Shown in pieces: positions 7,877-59,025 of a stretch of DNA of 64,000 nucleotides (positions within the stretch are counted from its first letter, which is position 1; each line of letters opens with the position of its first letter). The stretch comes from Escherichia coli. GTDB lineage: Bacteria; Pseudomonadota; Gammaproteobacteria; Enterobacterales; Enterobacteriaceae. The stretch lies in the NCBI RefSeq assembly GCF_041886205.1, contig NZ_CP169029.1; one strand, given 5' to 3'. Both the position numbers and the translations under genes were made by a program. The notes below the pieces were generated by a model, which worked only from the letters and a program-made list of their open reading frames with translations, ran no database searches and was not told where the DNA came from.

Positions 7877-8410
7877 ATGCGCCTGCTCCCTCTCGTTGCC
7901 GCAGCGACAGCTGCATTTCTGGTCGTTGCCTGCAGTTCTCCTACGCCGCCGCGTGGCGTGACAGTAGTGAATAATTTCGACGCTAAACGCTATCTCGGTA
8001 CCTGGTATGAGATTGCCCGTTTTGATCACCGTTTTGAACGTGGACTGGAAAAAGTCACCGCAACATACAGTCTGCGTGATGACGGCGGCCTGAATGTCAT
8101 CAATAAAGGCTATAACCCTGACAGAGAAATGTGGCAGCAGAGTGAAGGGAAAGCGTACTTTACCGGCGCACCAACACGCGCTGCGCTGAAAGTGTCATTC
8201 TTTGGTCCTTTCTATGGCGGTTATAACGTCATTGCACTTGATCGGGAATACCGCCATGCGCTGGTTTGCGGCCCGGACCGCGACTACCTGTGGATACTCT
8301 CCCGCATGCCAACCATTTCTGACGAAGTGAAACAGGAGATGCTGGCAGTCGCGACCCGGGAAGGGTTTGATGTCAGTAAGTTTATTTGGGTACAGCAGCC
8401 CGGTAGTTAG
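7877..8410 (+). CDS. blc: outer-membrane lipocalin Blc
   Basis: 177 aa; lipoprotein signal with lipobox (VVAC); lipocalin fold sequence; synteny. Confidence 0.93.
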
Positions 8411-8724
8411 TGAGTGCTGAGTTTCAGACCAATAATCCCCAATACGATTAACGCCAGACTCGCCAGGCGCATCGGGTTAGCGGACTCACCGAGCAGCACA
8501 ATGCCGGTGATAGCCGCGCCGACTGCGCCAATACCCGTCCACACGGCATAAGCCGTCCCTACTGGTAACGATTTCATCGCCCAGGCAAGTAGCGCCATAC
8601 TGACAATCATCGCCGTCACGGTAATAACACTCGGCGTCAAACGACTAAAGCCGTGGGTATATTTCAGGCCAACGGCCCATACCACTTCCAGCAGACCAGC
8701 AATAACTAAGATAATCCAGGACAT
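8407..8724 (-). CDS. gdx: SMR-family guanidinium exporter Gdx (SugE)
   Basis: 105 aa from [14 protein letters not shown]...; four-TM SMR protein; remainder of the 155-aa ORF is leader. Confidence 0.93.
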
Positions 8725-8739
8725 ATCAGGCTCCGGAGA

Positions 8740-8790
8740 ATTGGGGCCGTCCCCGGTGAAAAGACGCGTTTGCAGGTCGTCCTGCAAAGC
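8740..8790 (-). promoter_or_regulatory. guanidine-II (mini-ykkC) riboswitch in gdx 5' leader
   Basis: two hairpins with ACGR tetraloops on the mRNA strand: GCAGG-ACGA-CCTGC (8772-8785) and GGGG-ACGG-CCCC (8743-8754), just upstream of a GGAG SD and the gdx ATG. Confidence 0.7.
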
Positions 8791-8905
8791 TGATGGTTGA
8801 ACGGATATTTTGCCAGGTGGCAGGGGAATTTCAACTATTACCTTAGTGACTATCGCAGAAAAAACAAACGGCACGACATAGCTGTCGTACCGTTATTGCT
8901 TATTG

Positions 8906-9052
8906 CTATTGCTGCGCTTTCGTTGCTGCGCCAGAAATCGCGTTACCGCCATCAGAAATGTCTTCACCAACGCCACGCGTGGTGTTGCAGGCAGTTAATA
9001 CTGTTGAAAGCACCAGAACAGAAAAGATCGCTGCAATTGTCTTCTTCACCAT
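8906..9052 (-). CDS. ecnB: entericidin B lipoprotein (bacteriolytic)
   Basis: 48-aa [51 protein letters not shown], hand-translated; below ORF-track size cut-off. Confidence 0.85.
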
Positions 9053-9162
9053 AACGTCTTCCTTTTAGGTAATGTTATTTATGTTTGCCTATAGCAAATT
9101 AATAATAGACAACATCGCCAAAAATGACGGAAATCTGATGATTTTTCGGAAGAGAAGAAAAA

Positions 9163-22968: not shown

Positions 22969-23044
22969 GCCCGGATAGCTCAGTCGGTAGAGCAGGGGAT
23001 TGAAAATCCCCGTGTCCTTGGTTCGATTCCGAGTCCGGGCACCA
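22969..23044 (+). tRNA. pheU: tRNA-Phe (GAA anticodon)
   Basis: GCCCGGATAGCTCAGTCGGTAGAGCAGGGGATTGAAAATCCCCGTGTCCTTGGTTCGATTCCGAGTCCGGGCACCA; called pheU rather than pheV from yjdC flank. Confidence 0.97.
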
Positions 23045-23056
23045 AATTCATATCAA

Positions 23057-23082
23057 CGGACCTCCACGGAGGTCCGTTTTTC
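23057..23082 (+). terminator. tRNA-Phe terminator hairpin
   Basis: CGGACCTCC-ac-GGAGGTCCG followed by TTTTTCG. Confidence 0.8.
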
Positions 23083-23241
23083 GTTTCAGAACGCCACAAT
23101 TTAAGCGTTCTACCTACAAATCAATTCTACCGAACTCAACCAGATTCCCCCCACATCAACCCCATTGTGTGGGTATAATTGCGGGCATACCCCAGTTCGA
23201 CAGAATTTGTACCCTCTTTAACGCATTCAGAAGGCTATACT

Positions 23242-24504
23242 ATGGCACTGACTGACGCAAAAATCCGGGCTGCAAAGCCCACTGACAAGGCTTATAAACT
23301 CACTGACGGGGCTGGCATGTTCCTACTGGTTCATCCTAATGGTTCCCGTTACTGGCGTCTCCGTTATCGTATTCTGGGTAAGGAGAAGACTCTGGCACTT
23401 GGTGTGTATCCAGAAGTTTCTCTCTCCGAAGCTCGTACAAAACGGGATGAGGCCCGAAAACTGATTTCGGAGGGGATTGACCCTTGCGAACTGAAAAGAG
23501 CTAAAAAAGTAGTCCCTGATTTACAACTCTCTTTTGAACATATTGCACGACGCTGGCATGCCAGTAATAAACAATGGGCACAATCACACAGCGATAAAGT
23601 ACTCAAAAGCCTCGAGACACACGTTTTCCCCTTTATCGGCAACCGGGATATCACAACACTCAGTACCCCGGACCTGCTTATCCCTGTTCGTGCTGCAGAA
23701 GCTAAACAAATTTATGAAATCGCCAGTCGTCTGCAGCAAAGAATATCTGCTGTAATGCGTTATGCCGTACAGTCTGGCATCATCAGATATAACCCGGCTC
23801 TGGATATGGCTGGTGCATTGACCACGGTAAAACGCCAGCATCGCCCTGCACTGGATCTTTCACGCCTGCCTGAACTTCTGTCGCGTATTGACGGTTATAA
23901 AGGCCAGCCTGTCACCCGACTGGCAGTTATGCTGAATTTACTGGTTTTTATTCGTTCCAGTGAACTCAGATACGCCCGCTGGTCTGAAATTGATATTGAC
24001 AATGCCATGTGGACTATTCCAGCCGAACGCGAACCTCTGCCTGGCGTAAAATTCTCACACCGGGGCTCCAAGATGCGAACACCACATCTTGTGCCACTCA
24101 GCAAACAGGCTGTAGCCATACTGGCAGAACTACAGACATGGGCTGGTGAAAATGGTCTGATCTTTACGGGAGCACATGACCCGCGTAAACCAATCAGTGA
24201 AAATACTGTAAATAAAGCCCTGAGGGTGATGGGGTATGACACAACCCAGGATGTCTGTGGCCATGGATTCCGGGCGATGGCGTGCAGTGCATTGATTGAA
24301 TCAGGTTTGTGGTCCCGCGATGCTGTGGAACGTCAGATGAGCCATCAGGAGCGTAATGGTGTACGTGCTGCGTATATCCATAAAGCAGAACATCTGGAAG
24401 AACGGCGACTGATGTTGCAATGGTGGGCCGATTTTCTGGATGCGAACCGGGAGAAGGGTATCAGTCCGTTTGAATATGCAAAAATTAACAATCCATTAAA
24501 ATAG
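23242..24504 (+). CDS. P4-family tyrosine integrase, tRNA-Phe associated
   Basis: 441-aa ORF, about 420-aa product from MALTDAKIRAAKPTDKAYKLTDGAG; C-terminal catalytic HGFR ... AAYIH (H-x-x-R / Tyr); immediately 3' of tRNA. Confidence 0.88.
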   Translation: MALTDAKIRAAKPTDKAYKLTDGAGMFLLVHPNGSRYWRLRYRILGKEKTLALGVYPEVSLSEARTKRDEARKLISEGIDPCELKRAKKVVPDLQLSFEHIARRWHASNKQWAQSHSDKVLKSLETHVFPFIGNRDITTLSTPDLLIPVRAAEAKQIYEIASRLQQRISAVMRYAVQSGIIRYNPALDMAGALTTVKRQHRPALDLSRLPELLSRIDGYKGQPVTRLAVMLNLLVFIRSSELRYARWSEIDIDNAMWTIPAEREPLPGVKFSHRGSKMRTPHLVPLSKQAVAILAELQTWAGENGLIFTGAHDPRKPISENTVNKALRVMGYDTTQDVCGHGFRAMACSALIESGLWSRDAVERQMSHQERNGVRAAYIHKAEHLEERRLMLQWWADFLDANREKGISPFEYAKINNPLK

Positions 24505-24590
24505 TAAGCAGTCCGGGCAATCAGCCCGGACTGCTGGTGATGCTGCCAACTTACTGATTTAGTGTATGATGGTGTTTTTGAGGTGCTCCA

Positions 24591-24866
24591 GTGGCTTCTG
24601 TTTCTATCAGCTGTCCCTCCTGTTCAGCTACTGACGGGGTGGTACGTAACGGCAAAAGCACCGCCGGACATCAGCGCTATCTCTGCTCTCACTGCCGTAA
24701 AACATGGCAACTGCAGTTCACTTACACCGCTTCTCAACCCGGTACGCACCAGAAAATCATTGATATGGCCATGAATGGCGTTGGATGCCGGGCAACTGCC
24801 CGCATTATGGGCGTTGGCCTCAACACGATTTTACGTCACTTAAAAAACTCAGGCCGCAGTCGGTAA
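24591..24866 (+). CDS. insA: IS1 InsA
   Basis: 91-aa [20 protein letters not shown]...; zinc-finger/HTH protein of IS1. Confidence 0.95.
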
Positions 24867-25288
24867 CCTCGCGCATACAGCCGGGCAGTGACGTCATCGT
24901 CTGCGCGGAAATGGACGAACAGTGGGGCTATGTCGGGGCTAAATCGCGCCAGCGCTGGCTGTTTTACGCGTATGACAGGCTCCGGAAGACGGTTGTTGCG
25001 CACGTATTCGGTGAACGCACTATGGCGACGCTGGAGCGTCTTCTGGGCCTGCTGTCGGCCTTTGAGGTCGTGGTATGGATGACGGATGGCTGGCCGCTTT
25101 ATGAATCACGCCTGAAGGGAGAACTGCACGTTATCAGCAAGCGATATACGCAGCGCATTGAGCGGCATAACCTGAATCTGAGGCAGCATCTGGCAAGGCT
25201 GGGCAGGAAGTCACTGTCGTTCTCAAAATCGGTGGAGCTGCATGACAAAGTTATCGGGCATTATCTGAACATAAAACACTATCAATAA
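24785..25288 (+). CDS. insB: IS1 InsB (expressed as InsAB' transposase by -1 frameshift)
   Basis: 167-aa ORF in -1 frame relative to insA; matches IS1 InsB. Confidence 0.9.
24840..24848 (+). promoter_or_regulatory. IS1 programmed -1 ribosomal frameshift site (TTAAAAAAC)
   Basis: A6C slippery run at the insA/insB overlap. Confidence 0.8.
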
Positions 25289-25354
25289 GTTGGAGTCATT
25301 ACCCGCTTTGCTTTAGCGAGAACTGGTCTTTTATTCGCACTCAGGAGTACATGT

Positions 25355-30011: not shown

Positions 30012-31103
30012 ATGCGTTTTCTGCGCCGACCAATATCGCTGCGCCAACGGCTGATATTGACCATCGGGGCCATTTTGTTGGTGTTTGAGCTGATCAGCGT
30101 CTTCTGGCTATGGCATGAAAGTACCGAGCAGATTCAGCTGTTTGAGCAGGCGCTACGCGACAATCGCAACAACGATCGCCACATCATGCGTGAGATCCGC
30201 GAGGCGGTCGCCAGCCTGATTGTCCCCGGCGTCTTTATGGTCAGCCTGACGCTATTTATCTGCTATCAGGCGGTACGCCGCATCACCCGCCCGCTGGCGG
30301 AGCTGCAAAAAGAGCTGGAAGCGCGCACCGCCGACAACTTAACGCCCATTGCCATTCACAGCGCCACCCTCGAAATCGAAGCGGTGGTTTCGGCGTTAAA
30401 CGATCTGGTCAGTCGCCTGACCAGCACGCTGGATAACGAAAGGTTGTTTACCGCTGACGTCGCGCACGAACTGCGAACGCCACTGGCGGGGGTGCGTTTG
30501 CATCTGGAACTGCTGGCGAAAACGCATCACATTGATGTAGCACCGTTAGTGGCACGGCTTGATCAGATGATGGAGAGCGTCTCCCAGCTGCTGCAACTGG
30601 CGCGTGCCGGACAGTCATTTTCTTCCGGTAATTATCAACATGTAAAACTGCTGGAAGATGTCATTCTCCCCTCGTATGACGAACTCAGTACCATGCTCGA
30701 CCAGCGACAGCAAACCCTGCTATTGCCAGAGAGCGCCGCCGACATCACCGTTCAGGGTGATGCAACCCTGCTGCGGATGTTATTGCGAAACCTGGTAGAA
30801 AACGCCCATCGTTACAGCCCGCAAGGCAGCAACATTATGATTAAGCTGCAAGAAGATGACGGAGCGGTCATGGCAGTTGAAGATGAAGGACCAGGTATTG
30901 ATGAGAGTAAATGCGGGGAGTTGAGTAAAGCGTTTGTACGTATGGACAGCCGTTATGGCGGGATTGGTCTGGGGTTAAGTATTGTCAGCCGCATTACACA
31001 GTTGCATCACGGGCAGTTTTTCCTGCAAAACCGGCAAGAGACTTCCGGCACGCGGGCCTGGGTACGGCTGAAGAAAGATCAGTACGTGGCAAACCAGATA
31101 TAA
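30012..31103 (+). CDS. basS: sensor histidine kinase BasS (PmrB)
   Basis: about 363 aa from MRFLRRPISLRQR...; H-box ADVAHELRTP; ATPase domain. Confidence 0.95.
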   Translation: MRFLRRPISLRQRLILTIGAILLVFELISVFWLWHESTEQIQLFEQALRDNRNNDRHIMREIREAVASLIVPGVFMVSLTLFICYQAVRRITRPLAELQKELEARTADNLTPIAIHSATLEIEAVVSALNDLVSRLTSTLDNERLFTADVAHELRTPLAGVRLHLELLAKTHHIDVAPLVARLDQMMESVSQLLQLARAGQSFSSGNYQHVKLLEDVILPSYDELSTMLDQRQQTLLLPESAADITVQGDATLLRMLLRNLVENAHRYSPQGSNIMIKLQEDDGAVMAVEDEGPGIDESKCGELSKAFVRMDSRYGGIGLGLSIVSRITQLHHGQFFLQNRQETSGTRAWVRLKKDQYVANQI

Positions 31104-31168
31104 AGAAAGCTGCTGACCACCAGCACGCTGAACACGGTAGTTAAACTTTCATAAACACGGTTTTTCAT
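31079..31168 (-). CDS. pmrR: small membrane protein PmrR
   Basis: 29-aa ORF MKNRVYESLTTVFSVLVVSSFLYIWFATY, hand-translated, antisense and overlapping the basS 3' end. Confidence 0.75.
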   Translation of the reverse strand: MKNRVYESLTTVFSVLVVSSFLYIWFATY

Positions 31169-31279
31169 TGCACTCTCCTCCGTTAACCTGGAGGAGAGTA
31201 TGCGCGTCAGAGATTAAGTGAACCTTAAGAGTTCAATTGGCCTGATAAGACAGCGTCACATCAGGCCATCCGTTTCAGC

Positions 31280-36899: not shown

Positions 36900-37082
<183 letters not shown>

Positions 37083-39550: not shown

Positions 39551-39640
39551 CGTAGGTCGGATAAGACGCCCCGGCGTCGCATCCGACAATGTGCAGGCGT
39601 TGATGCCGGATGCGGTGCAAGCACCTTATCCGGCCTACAG
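39551..39640. repeat. REP units between phnD and phnE
   Basis: GTAGGTCGGATAAGACGC...GCATCCGACA and GCCGGATGCGG...CTTATCCGGCCTAC. Confidence 0.85.
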
Positions 39641-56877: not shown

Positions 56878-59025
56878 ATGAAAAAAGTCGTCACGGTTTG
56901 CCCCTATTGCGCATCAGGTTGCAAAATCAACCTGGTCGTCGATAACGGCAAAATCGTCCGGGCGGAGGCAGCGCAGGGGAAAACCAACCAGGGTACCCTG
57001 TGTCTGAAGGGTTATTATGGCTGGGATTTCATTAACGATACCCAGATCCTGACCCCGCGCCTGAAAACCCCCATGATCCGTCGCCAGCGTGGCGGCAAAC
57101 TCGAACCTGTTTCCTGGGATGAGGCACTGAATTACGTTGCCGAGCGCCTGAGCGCCATCAAAGAGAAGTACGGTCCGGATGCCATCCAGACGACCGGCTC
57201 CTCGCGTGGTACGGGTAACGAAACCAACTATGTAATGCAAAAATTTGCGCGCGCCGTTATTGGTACCAATAACGTTGACTGCTGCGCTCGTGTCTGACAC
57301 GGCCCATCGGTTGCAGGTCTGCACCAATCGGTCGGTAATGGCGCAATGAGCAATGCTATTAACGAAATTGATAATACCGATTTAGTGTTCGTTTTCGGGT
57401 ACAACCCGGCGGATTCCCACCCAATCGTAGCGAATCACGTAATTAACGCTAAACGTAACGGGGCGAAAATTATCGTCTGCGATCCGCGCAAAATTGAAAC
57501 CGCGCGCATTGCTGACATGCACATTGCACTGAAAAACGGCTCGAACATCGCGCTGTTGAATGCGATGGGCCATGTCATTATTGAAGAAAATTTGTACGAC
57601 AAAGCATTCGTCGCTTCCCGTACAGAAGGCTTTGAAGAGTATCGTAAAATCGTTGAAGGCTACACGCCGGAGTCGGTTGAAGATATCACCGGCGTCAGCG
57701 CCAGTGAGATTCGTCAGGCGGCACGGATGTATGCCCAGGCGAAAAGCGCCGCCATCCTGTGGGGCATGGGTGTAACCCAGTTCTACCAGGGCGTGGAAAC
57801 CGTGCGTTCTCTGACCAGCCTCGCGATGCTGACCGGTAACCTCGGTAAGCCACATGCGGGTGTTAACCCGGTTCGTGGTCAGAACAACGTACAGGGTGCC
57901 TGCGATATGGGCGCGCTGCCGGATACGTATCCGGGATACCAGTACGTGAAAGATCCGGCTAACCGCGAGAAATTCGCCAAAGCCTGGGGCGTGGAAAGCC
58001 TGCCAGCGCATACCGGCTATCGCATCAGCGAGCTACCGCACCGCGCAGCGCATGGCGAAGTGCGTGCCGCGTACATTATGGGCGAAGATCCGCTGCAAAC
58101 TGACGCGGAGCTGTCGGCAGTACGTAAAGCCTTTGAAGATCTGGAACTGGTTATCGTTCAGGACATCTTTATGACCAAAACCGCGTCGGCGGCGGATGTT
58201 ATTTTACCGTCAACGTCGTGGGGCGAGCATGAAGGCGTGTTTACTGCGGCTGACCGTGGCTTCCAGCGTTTCTTCAAGGCGGTTGAACCGAAATGGGATC
58301 TGAAAACGGACTGGCAAATCATCAGTGAAATCGCCACCCGTATGGGTTATCCGATGCACTACAACAACACCCAGGAGATCTGGGATGAGTTGCGTCATCT
58401 GTGCCCGGATTTCTACGGTGCGACTTACGAGAAAATGGGCGAACTGGGCTTCATTCAGTGGCCTTGCCGCGATACTTCAGATGCCGATCAGGGGACTTCT
58501 TATCTGTTTAAAGAGAAGTTTGATACCCCGAACGGTCTGGCGCAGTTCTTCACCTGCGACTGGGTAGCGCCAATCGACAAACTCACCGACGAGTACCCGA
58601 TGGTACTGTCAACGGTGCGTGAAGTTGGTCACTACTCTTGCCGTTCGATGACCGGTAACTGTGCGGCACTGGCGGCGCTGGCTGATGAACCTGGCTACGC
58701 ACAAATCAATACCGAAGACGCCAAACGTCTGGGTATTGAAGATGAGGCATTGGTTTGGGTGCACTCGCGTAAAGGCAAAATTATCACCCGTGCGCAGGTC
58801 AGCGATCGTCCGAACAAAGGGGCGATTTACATGACCTACCAGTGGTGGATTGGTGCCTGTAACGAGCTGGTTACCGAAAACTTAAGCCCGATTACGAAAA
58901 CGCCGGAGTACAAATACTGCGCCGTTCGCGTCGAGCCGATCGCCGATCAGCGCGCCGCCGAGCAGTACGTGATTGACGAGTACAACAAGTTGAAAACTCG
59001 CCTGCGCGAAGCGGCACTGGCGTAA
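56878..59025 (+). CDS. fdhF: formate dehydrogenase H (selenoprotein; UGA140 = Sec)
   Basis: 139-aa ORF and 559-aa ORF are in the same frame, separated only by TGA at 57295-57297; N-terminal CPYCASGC Fe-S motif; 715-aa molybdoenzyme. Confidence 0.96.
57295..57340 (+). promoter_or_regulatory. in-frame UGA Sec codon plus SECIS stem-loop of fdhF
   Basis: TGACACGGCCCATCGGTTGCAGGTCTGCACCAATCGGTCGGTAATGGC immediately 3' of UGA. Confidence 0.85.

Follow-up and report, generated by a model that had tools for sequence, protein, structure and literature searches.

Guanidine-II riboswitches are defined by two hairpins with ACGR loops, two conserved G-C closing pairs and 16 conserved nucleotides, and their linkers range from 7 to 40 nt (PMC5558903). 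Guanidinium binds the ACGR loop, and the two loops dimerise through C and G residues, as shown in the literature, the E. coli P1 included. In reviews, E. coli appears as one of the hosts, and the class is presented as a translational ON switch. The E. coli P1_8bp RNA was crystallised with guanidine (PDB 5NDI, UUUGCAGGACGACCUG(BrC)AAA; PMC5486947). The E. coli sugE aptamer, with P1, the native linker and an ACGG-loop P2, was studied by NMR and SAXS (PMC9300104). In this 49-nt RNA, P1 binds guanidinium and the P2 ACGG loop gave no response; the study proposes that the G variant of this loop down-tunes the switch. At NMR concentrations it formed intermolecular P1-P1' dimers rather than the P1-P2 kissing contact (PMC9300104). 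A ligand-dependent intrastrand kissing state of the E. coli aptamer was described by smFRET and simulation (PMC9094411). The linker is the putative anti-Shine-Dalgarno segment (anti-SD) in the literature model (PMC9300104, PMC9094411). For G. violaceus, Huang et al. proposed a stem that overlaps P2 and the ribosome-binding site (RBS). A 2025 study places ACGA, ACGG and GGAG within 64 bp upstream of gdx (PMC13064478). In ZX-1, according to this study, a 20-bp deletion spanning -30 to -11 gives constitutively high gdx, detected as mRNA level by RNA-seq. The study also reports that guanidinium boosts Gdx-dependent Cs+ resistance, which its authors credit to riboswitch-mediated induction.

We analysed a 64,000-nt stretch of an E. 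coli genome (here, the window). The leader of its gdx gene almost certainly contains the guanidine-II (mini-ykkC) riboswitch of the E. coli chromosome, a translational ON-switch that controls the guanidinium/H+ antiporter Gdx (SugE). Our analysis supports this through the identity of the motif, the genes around it and the covariation seen in both stems. From the literature come guanidine binding, shown for this same P1 and for the E. coli aptamer, and constitutive expression upon deletion of P2. Both the element and this very sequence were known before, and it is among the best-characterised small riboswitches.

The gdx/sugE coding sequence lies on the minus strand at 8407 to 8724. It encodes a 105-aa guanidinium exporter of the SMR family. 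The product matched the NCBIfam SugE/Gdx equivalog NF008512 with 193.5 bits (cut-off, 126) and Pfam PF00893 with 115 bits. The Gdx-type SMR structures 6wk5 and 8vxu matched at an E value of about 1e-32 (1.5e-32 for 6wk5). All EmrE/Qac models scored far below their own cut-offs on this protein. The first-pass annotation had assigned the element to a gdx/sugE leader, and the identity of the downstream open reading frame (ORF) bears it out. The gene order, frdD-ampC-blc-gdx-ecnB-ecnA-efp-epmB, is that of an E. coli-type chromosome. A 901-nt region of the locus was found in 5,425 of 5,426 complete E. coli genomes with 95 to 99.9% identity. The gdx stop and the terminus of blc, which is convergent, share 4 nt (8407 to 8410), so a separate terminator would not fit between the two genes.

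On the minus strand the leader reads GC-UUUGCAGG-ACGA-CCUGCAAA-CGCGUCUUUUCACC-GGGG-ACGG-CCCC-AAUUCUCC-GGAG-CCUGAU-AUG. P1 spans 8788 to 8769. It contains UUUGCAGG (8788 to 8781), the ACGA tetraloop (8780 to 8777) and CCUGCAAA (8776 to 8769) in an 8-bp stem with GG/CC closing pairs. Two extra pairs are possible past a bulge (G8790-C8766 and C8789-G8767). The linker, as placed by the covariance-model alignment, is the 14 nt CGCGUCUUUUCACC at 8768 to 8755 (the ACGCGUCUUUUCACC region), within the guanidine-II range of 7 to 40 nt. P2 spans 8754 to 8743, with GGGG (8754 to 8751), the ACGG tetraloop (8750 to 8747) and CCCC (8746 to 8743) in a 4-bp stem. Each ACGR loop is closed by two G-C pairs, in GG-ACGA-CC at 8782 to 8775 and in GG-ACGG-CC at 8752 to 8745. 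An 8-nt spacer, AAUUCUCC, separates P2 from the Shine-Dalgarno (SD) sequence GGAG (8734 to 8731). The SD lies 6 nt (CCUGAU) ahead of the AUG start codon (8724 to 8722), and the distance from P2 to the AUG is 18 nt. The first-pass annotation was thus right about two linked ACGR hairpins upstream of the SD and off in the stem details. P1 has 8 bp, not 7. The GGGG-ACGG-CCCC arm of P2 stood at 4 bp; the additional 5' CC given for it faces A-A and is unpaired.

The whole-leader match to a known family is strong. A mini-ykkC covariance-model scan, as the first-pass annotation had proposed, returned Rfam RF01068 (Guanidine-II) with 49.3 bits, where the gathering score is 32. The match covers model positions 1 to 48 of 48, end to end, which upholds the architecture that had been claimed. 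With both strands of the 64-kb window searched, its E value was 9.5e-7; for the local 351 nt it was 5.2e-9. Guanidine-II was the sole Rfam match in 8600 to 8950 at an E value of 1 or below with permissive filters, and the guanidine-I, -III and -IV classes gave no match there.

The hairpins might instead have arisen by chance, or as generic GC-rich leader structure that senses no ligand. Taken singly, the GGACGRCC octamer is not over-represented: the window has 3 copies, versus 3.5 ± 2.0 in shuffles. ACGR-capped hairpins of at least 4 bp number 19 in the 64 kb on both strands. Since the lone octamer occurs at chance frequency, it is the covariance model and the context that carry the case. Among the 19 hairpins, only P1 and P2 combine GG/CC closing pairs with a place next to each other on one strand, at a distance of 30 nt. 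The improbable part is this combination of two hairpins, not the single octamer. The chance reading is also opposed by the E value of the covariance-model match and by the crystal structure of an identical P1 with guanidine.

Relatives in other bacteria bear on the same question. We scanned one genome per species (GTDB r220) with the pattern GGACGACC-N17-40-GGGACGRCCC. The scan yielded at least 120 loci and at least 125 non-redundant matches. Downstream genes were assigned by a frame-independent phmmer search; gene calling by the first start codon in any frame was dropped because it gave wrong calls at high-GC loci. SMR/Gdx-like genes lay downstream of at least 49 matches, with a mean of 4.5 extra P1 pairs beyond the fixed bases. 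Biotin-carboxylase-N genes of the guanidine/urea carboxylase type followed at least 11 matches (mean, 4.2 extra pairs), and BTP/PACE "chlorhexidine efflux" genes followed at least 7 (mean, 2.1). At least 58 matches preceded other genes (mean, 1.5); most of these are chance occurrences from high-GC genomes. Pfam searches with N-terminal fragments of one carboxylase and two BTP representatives served to check those two labels. Among the SMR matches listed, the start codon mostly lies 15 to 29 nt after the fixed 10-nt P2 core; in the window it lies at 19 nt. A position 19 nt before the Gdx start, like that in at least 49 unrelated genomes, is hard to reconcile with a chance origin.

At least 7 of the pattern matches, mostly in Alphaproteobacteria, lie directly upstream of the BTP/PACE genes (L015, L060, L061, L066, L089, L113 and L121). 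The two genes that were checked matched PF05232 at an E value of about 1e-22. This association, seen in gene order, suggests PACE exporters that may be regulated by guanidine.

Covariation was measured in 67 distinct gene-associated hairpin pairs among the matches listed, the window included. The loops and inner pairs are fixed by the search pattern, so the covariation is informative at the outer pairs only. At stem positions free of the pattern, 84% of cells were paired versus 34 to 54% in slid registers. The covariation score was 0.451, versus 0.144 ± 0.012 in shuffled sets (reached by 0 of 500) and at most 0.159 in slid registers. The P1 pair adjoining GG/CC was AU in 33, GC in 23, GU in 5, UA in 4 and CG in 1. 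The fourth P2 pair was CG in 28, GC in 27, GU in 7 and AU in 3. Both stems are strongly supported by these compensatory changes. Position 4 of the P2 loop was G in 26 of the 67, and the ACGA/ACGG combination of the window is common.

Within E. coli, the 96-nt leader was present at 95% identity or above in 5,421 of the 5,426 complete genomes; about 11 of the 5,426 had no full-length leader match. P1 was invariant in the leaders that were aligned, and P2 was invariant in the full-length ones. The polymorphisms seen in E. coli leaders fell outside both hairpins. K-12 MG1655 differs at one linker base (G8765C; the window has G), and UTI89 differs in the spacer between P2 and the SD (C8738U). Against this invariance and the strong covariation among relatives, a chance or purely generic structure has a negligible probability, and we keep to the guanidine-II riboswitch.

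As an ON switch, the riboswitch would work as follows. Guanidinium would enter the loops, chiefly the ACGA loop of P1. The bound ligand would steady the loop-loop (kissing) contact through the C and G residues of the loops. With both hairpins held, the GGAG/AUG region would be freed from alternative pairing, and ribosomes could initiate on gdx. When no ligand is bound, the weak 4-bp P2 would be mostly open and the SD paired, and little Gdx would be made. The promoter and the SD-occluding nucleotides in E. coli are parts of this model that we infer, as is the intramolecular nature of the kissing in vivo.

Ligand-free folding of 8790 to 8700 is in line with this scheme. P1 formed with a probability of about 1.0 (individual pairs, 0.96 to 1.0) and P2 with about 0.10. 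In the predicted ensemble the G residues of the SD were unpaired with a probability of 0.00 to 0.05. The predicted minimum-energy fold pairs 8753 to 8743 with 8734 to 8718 and is 1.5 kcal/mol better than P1 plus P2. In this alternative helix all three G residues of GGAG are predicted to be covered, along with the G of the AUG and codon 2. When P1 and P2 were enforced, a local hairpin between the SD and codons 2 and 3 was still predicted. The computed contrast between OFF and ON is small, with RBS opening at 7.8 versus 6.4 kcal/mol.

The riboswitch may be real and its OFF state unlike the published cartoon, with the SD held by the linker and not P2, or the reverse. We regard the matter as evenly balanced. 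The linker is the anti-SD of the literature model, and it was the main predicted SD partner in 11 of the 41 SMR leaders that were folded. Its complementarity to GGAG in the window is weak, however (CUUU, with G-U pairs). P2 is favoured by the window ensemble, in which 64% of the predicted SD pairing is with P2 and less than 5% with the linker. A helix overlapping P2 is likewise predicted in E. albertii, Citrobacter, a Providencia plasmid, Superficieibacter and several Pseudomonas, where GGGGAC pairs with a conserved AUG-UCC-UGG. It is also predicted in a Bradyrhizobium, but through a different sequence. The stem of Huang et al. in G. violaceus points the same way. In other lineages the predicted partner of the SD is the linker or P1. 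About 36 of the 41 folded leaders are predicted to have at least one hairpin largely disrupted without ligand, and in five both hairpins are predicted to form; such disruption fits a switch in most leaders. The P2 helix of the window fails a shuffle control, however. With the 43 nt downstream of P2 shuffled, an equal or larger preference for the non-P2 fold appeared in 27% of cases, and the predicted OFF helix is therefore not claimed beyond chance.

The ZX-1 deletion corresponds to window positions 8754 to 8735, which are P2 and AAUUCUCC. It takes P2 and spares the linker and P1, yet expression is constitutive, which favours P2 as the anti-SD. A ZX-1-type 20-nt deletion lowered the predicted cost of RBS opening from 7.8 to 4.7 kcal/mol, which agrees with the reported phenotype.

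A natural deletion was found in strain 167, a urinary isolate (NZ_CM132950.1; L002, 2544 to 2557). It removes 29 nt of the gdx leader, equivalent to window positions 8767 to 8739. The linker and all of P2 are gone, and P1, CUCCGGAG and the ATG are kept. An RBS-opening cost of 9.4 kcal/mol computed for this strain was discarded because the footprint then overlaps P1. By likeness to the ZX-1 deletion, strain 167 may express gdx constitutively.

We suggest tentatively, and at less than even confidence, that in E. coli and its close relatives P2 (8753 to 8743), not the linker, is the anti-SD that pairs with GGAG, the G of the AUG and codon 2. Deletions that remove P2, as in strain 167 and ZX-1, would then give constitutive Gdx. 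Such leader deletions could arise repeatedly in natural isolates, without being annotated, and raise their tolerance of guanidinium, Cs+ or biocides.

The ZX-1 effect was measured as mRNA, so control may not be purely translational. P1 and the U-rich linker (CGCGUCUUUU) could be read as an intrinsic terminator or attenuator, with control exerted wholly or partly on transcription or mRNA abundance. A permissive terminator scan flags 8788 to 8769 plus the tail, ZX-1 was picked up through raised gdx mRNA in RNA-seq, and the related guanidine-III class is known to affect RNase E access. The features of the site argue otherwise. Its U-run (UCUUUU) is interrupted and begins 6 nt past a stem with only 4 G-C pairs, and chance alone would yield 0.8 such sites in this 800-nt stretch. 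A ligand that steadies P1 would make a terminator an OFF switch, against the reported effect, which is consistent with induction. The ZX-1 deletion spares P1 and the U-run, yet expression goes up. The guanidine-II family is described as translational (PMC5558903 and reviews), and a rise in mRNA is expected as a secondary effect of better translation. P1 as a terminator was judged unlikely, with a hit in the permissive scan only and the wrong sign for an ON switch, and control of this kind is very improbable as the basis of the switch. The simplest account of the rise in ZX-1 is better translation; mRNA stability or Rho could conceivably contribute. We therefore retain the translational ON-switch.

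Upstream of P1, a sigma-70-like promoter candidate for gdx lies on the minus strand at 8807 to 8834. It reads TTGAAA-16-TGCAAAAT (TG-CAAAAT, with an extended -10 TG) and matches 9 of 12 positions. It was the sole such site in a scan of 8350 to 9150, where 0.9 were expected by chance; with about one such site expected, it is a candidate only. From its position, the gdx transcript probably starts about 10 to 15 nt upstream of P1 and has a short leader. An intrinsic terminator of ecnB, with a 12-bp stem and a U-run, lies directly after the ecnB stop at 8867 to 8894 on the minus strand. On the upstream side, the gdx transcription unit is delimited by this terminator.

Other features were observed elsewhere in the window. 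The region 22969 to 25350 contains tRNA-Phe (GAA) and, immediately after it, an ORF (23179 to 24504) for a P4-type tyrosine integrase that has the domains Arm-DNA-bind_3, Phage_int_M and Phage_integrase. The genes adiY, adiC, eptA, pmrB and proP follow about 0.8 kb past this ORF. In K-12 the order presumably places pheU and adiY about 25 kb apart, with cadCBA, lysU, dcuSR, melAB and adiA between them. The pheU-adiY block seems to be absent from the window, next to an island-integrase remnant; its absence would also account for the short distance, 48 kb, between fdhF and gdx. Rfam SECIS_2 matched with 87 bits at 57290 to 57344 on the plus strand, just upstream of a 559-aa ORF. The region is annotated as fdhF (formate dehydrogenase H) in E. 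coli genomes, and the match is thus this gene's usual selenocysteine insertion element. The sRNA STnc630 had a full-length Rfam match of 181.8 bits at 31072 to 31237 on the minus strand, between the end of a pmrB-like ORF and a proP-like ORF. Three naRNA4 matches (REP/BIME-type repeats) were found at 36903 to 37079 on the plus strand and 39555 to 39635 on the minus strand; two of them are in tandem.

The remark in the first-pass annotation that ORF-based annotation would miss the element holds for the RefSeq/PGAP records that were inspected (window positions 8725 to 8800, L001, L002 and L004), which contain no riboswitch or regulatory feature. The RefSeq/PGAP product name is mostly "quaternary ammonium compound efflux SMR transporter SugE"; in K-12 MG1655 it is "gdx, guanidinium exporter." Because this annotation lacks the riboswitch, a scan that flags the element adds regulatory logic, namely guanidinium-inducible export. 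As a discovery the element matters little, and its practical value is in annotation. Only two items are mildly new: strain 167's natural loss of 29 nt from the leader, and the suggestion that the anti-SD in E. coli may be P2 and not the linker.

Compared with known systems, the window matches the E. coli sugE/gdx guanidine-II riboswitch (PDB 5NDI for P1) in its two hairpins, GG/CC closure, 14-nt linker and place before the SD. The RNA of PDB 5NDI equals window positions 8788 to 8769 base for base. Both hairpins are identical to those of K-12 MG1655, and the one linker base that differs is outside the conserved core. The copies from Providencia vermicola p8538-NDM-1 (L059) and Citrobacter werkmanii (L065) share P1, P2, the SD spacing and the predicted alternative helix with the window. 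They differ in a linker that is one nt shorter and in the spacer between P2 and the SD (CAUUGUUCUGGAG). Copies of the plasmid and Citrobacter type are mobilised on resistance plasmids, whereas the copy in the window is chromosomal. The guanidine-I (ykkC), -III and -IV classes share the ligand and, according to reviews, have overlapping regulons of SMR exporters and guanidine carboxylases. Their folds are unrelated to that of guanidine-II, and classes I and IV are transcriptional.
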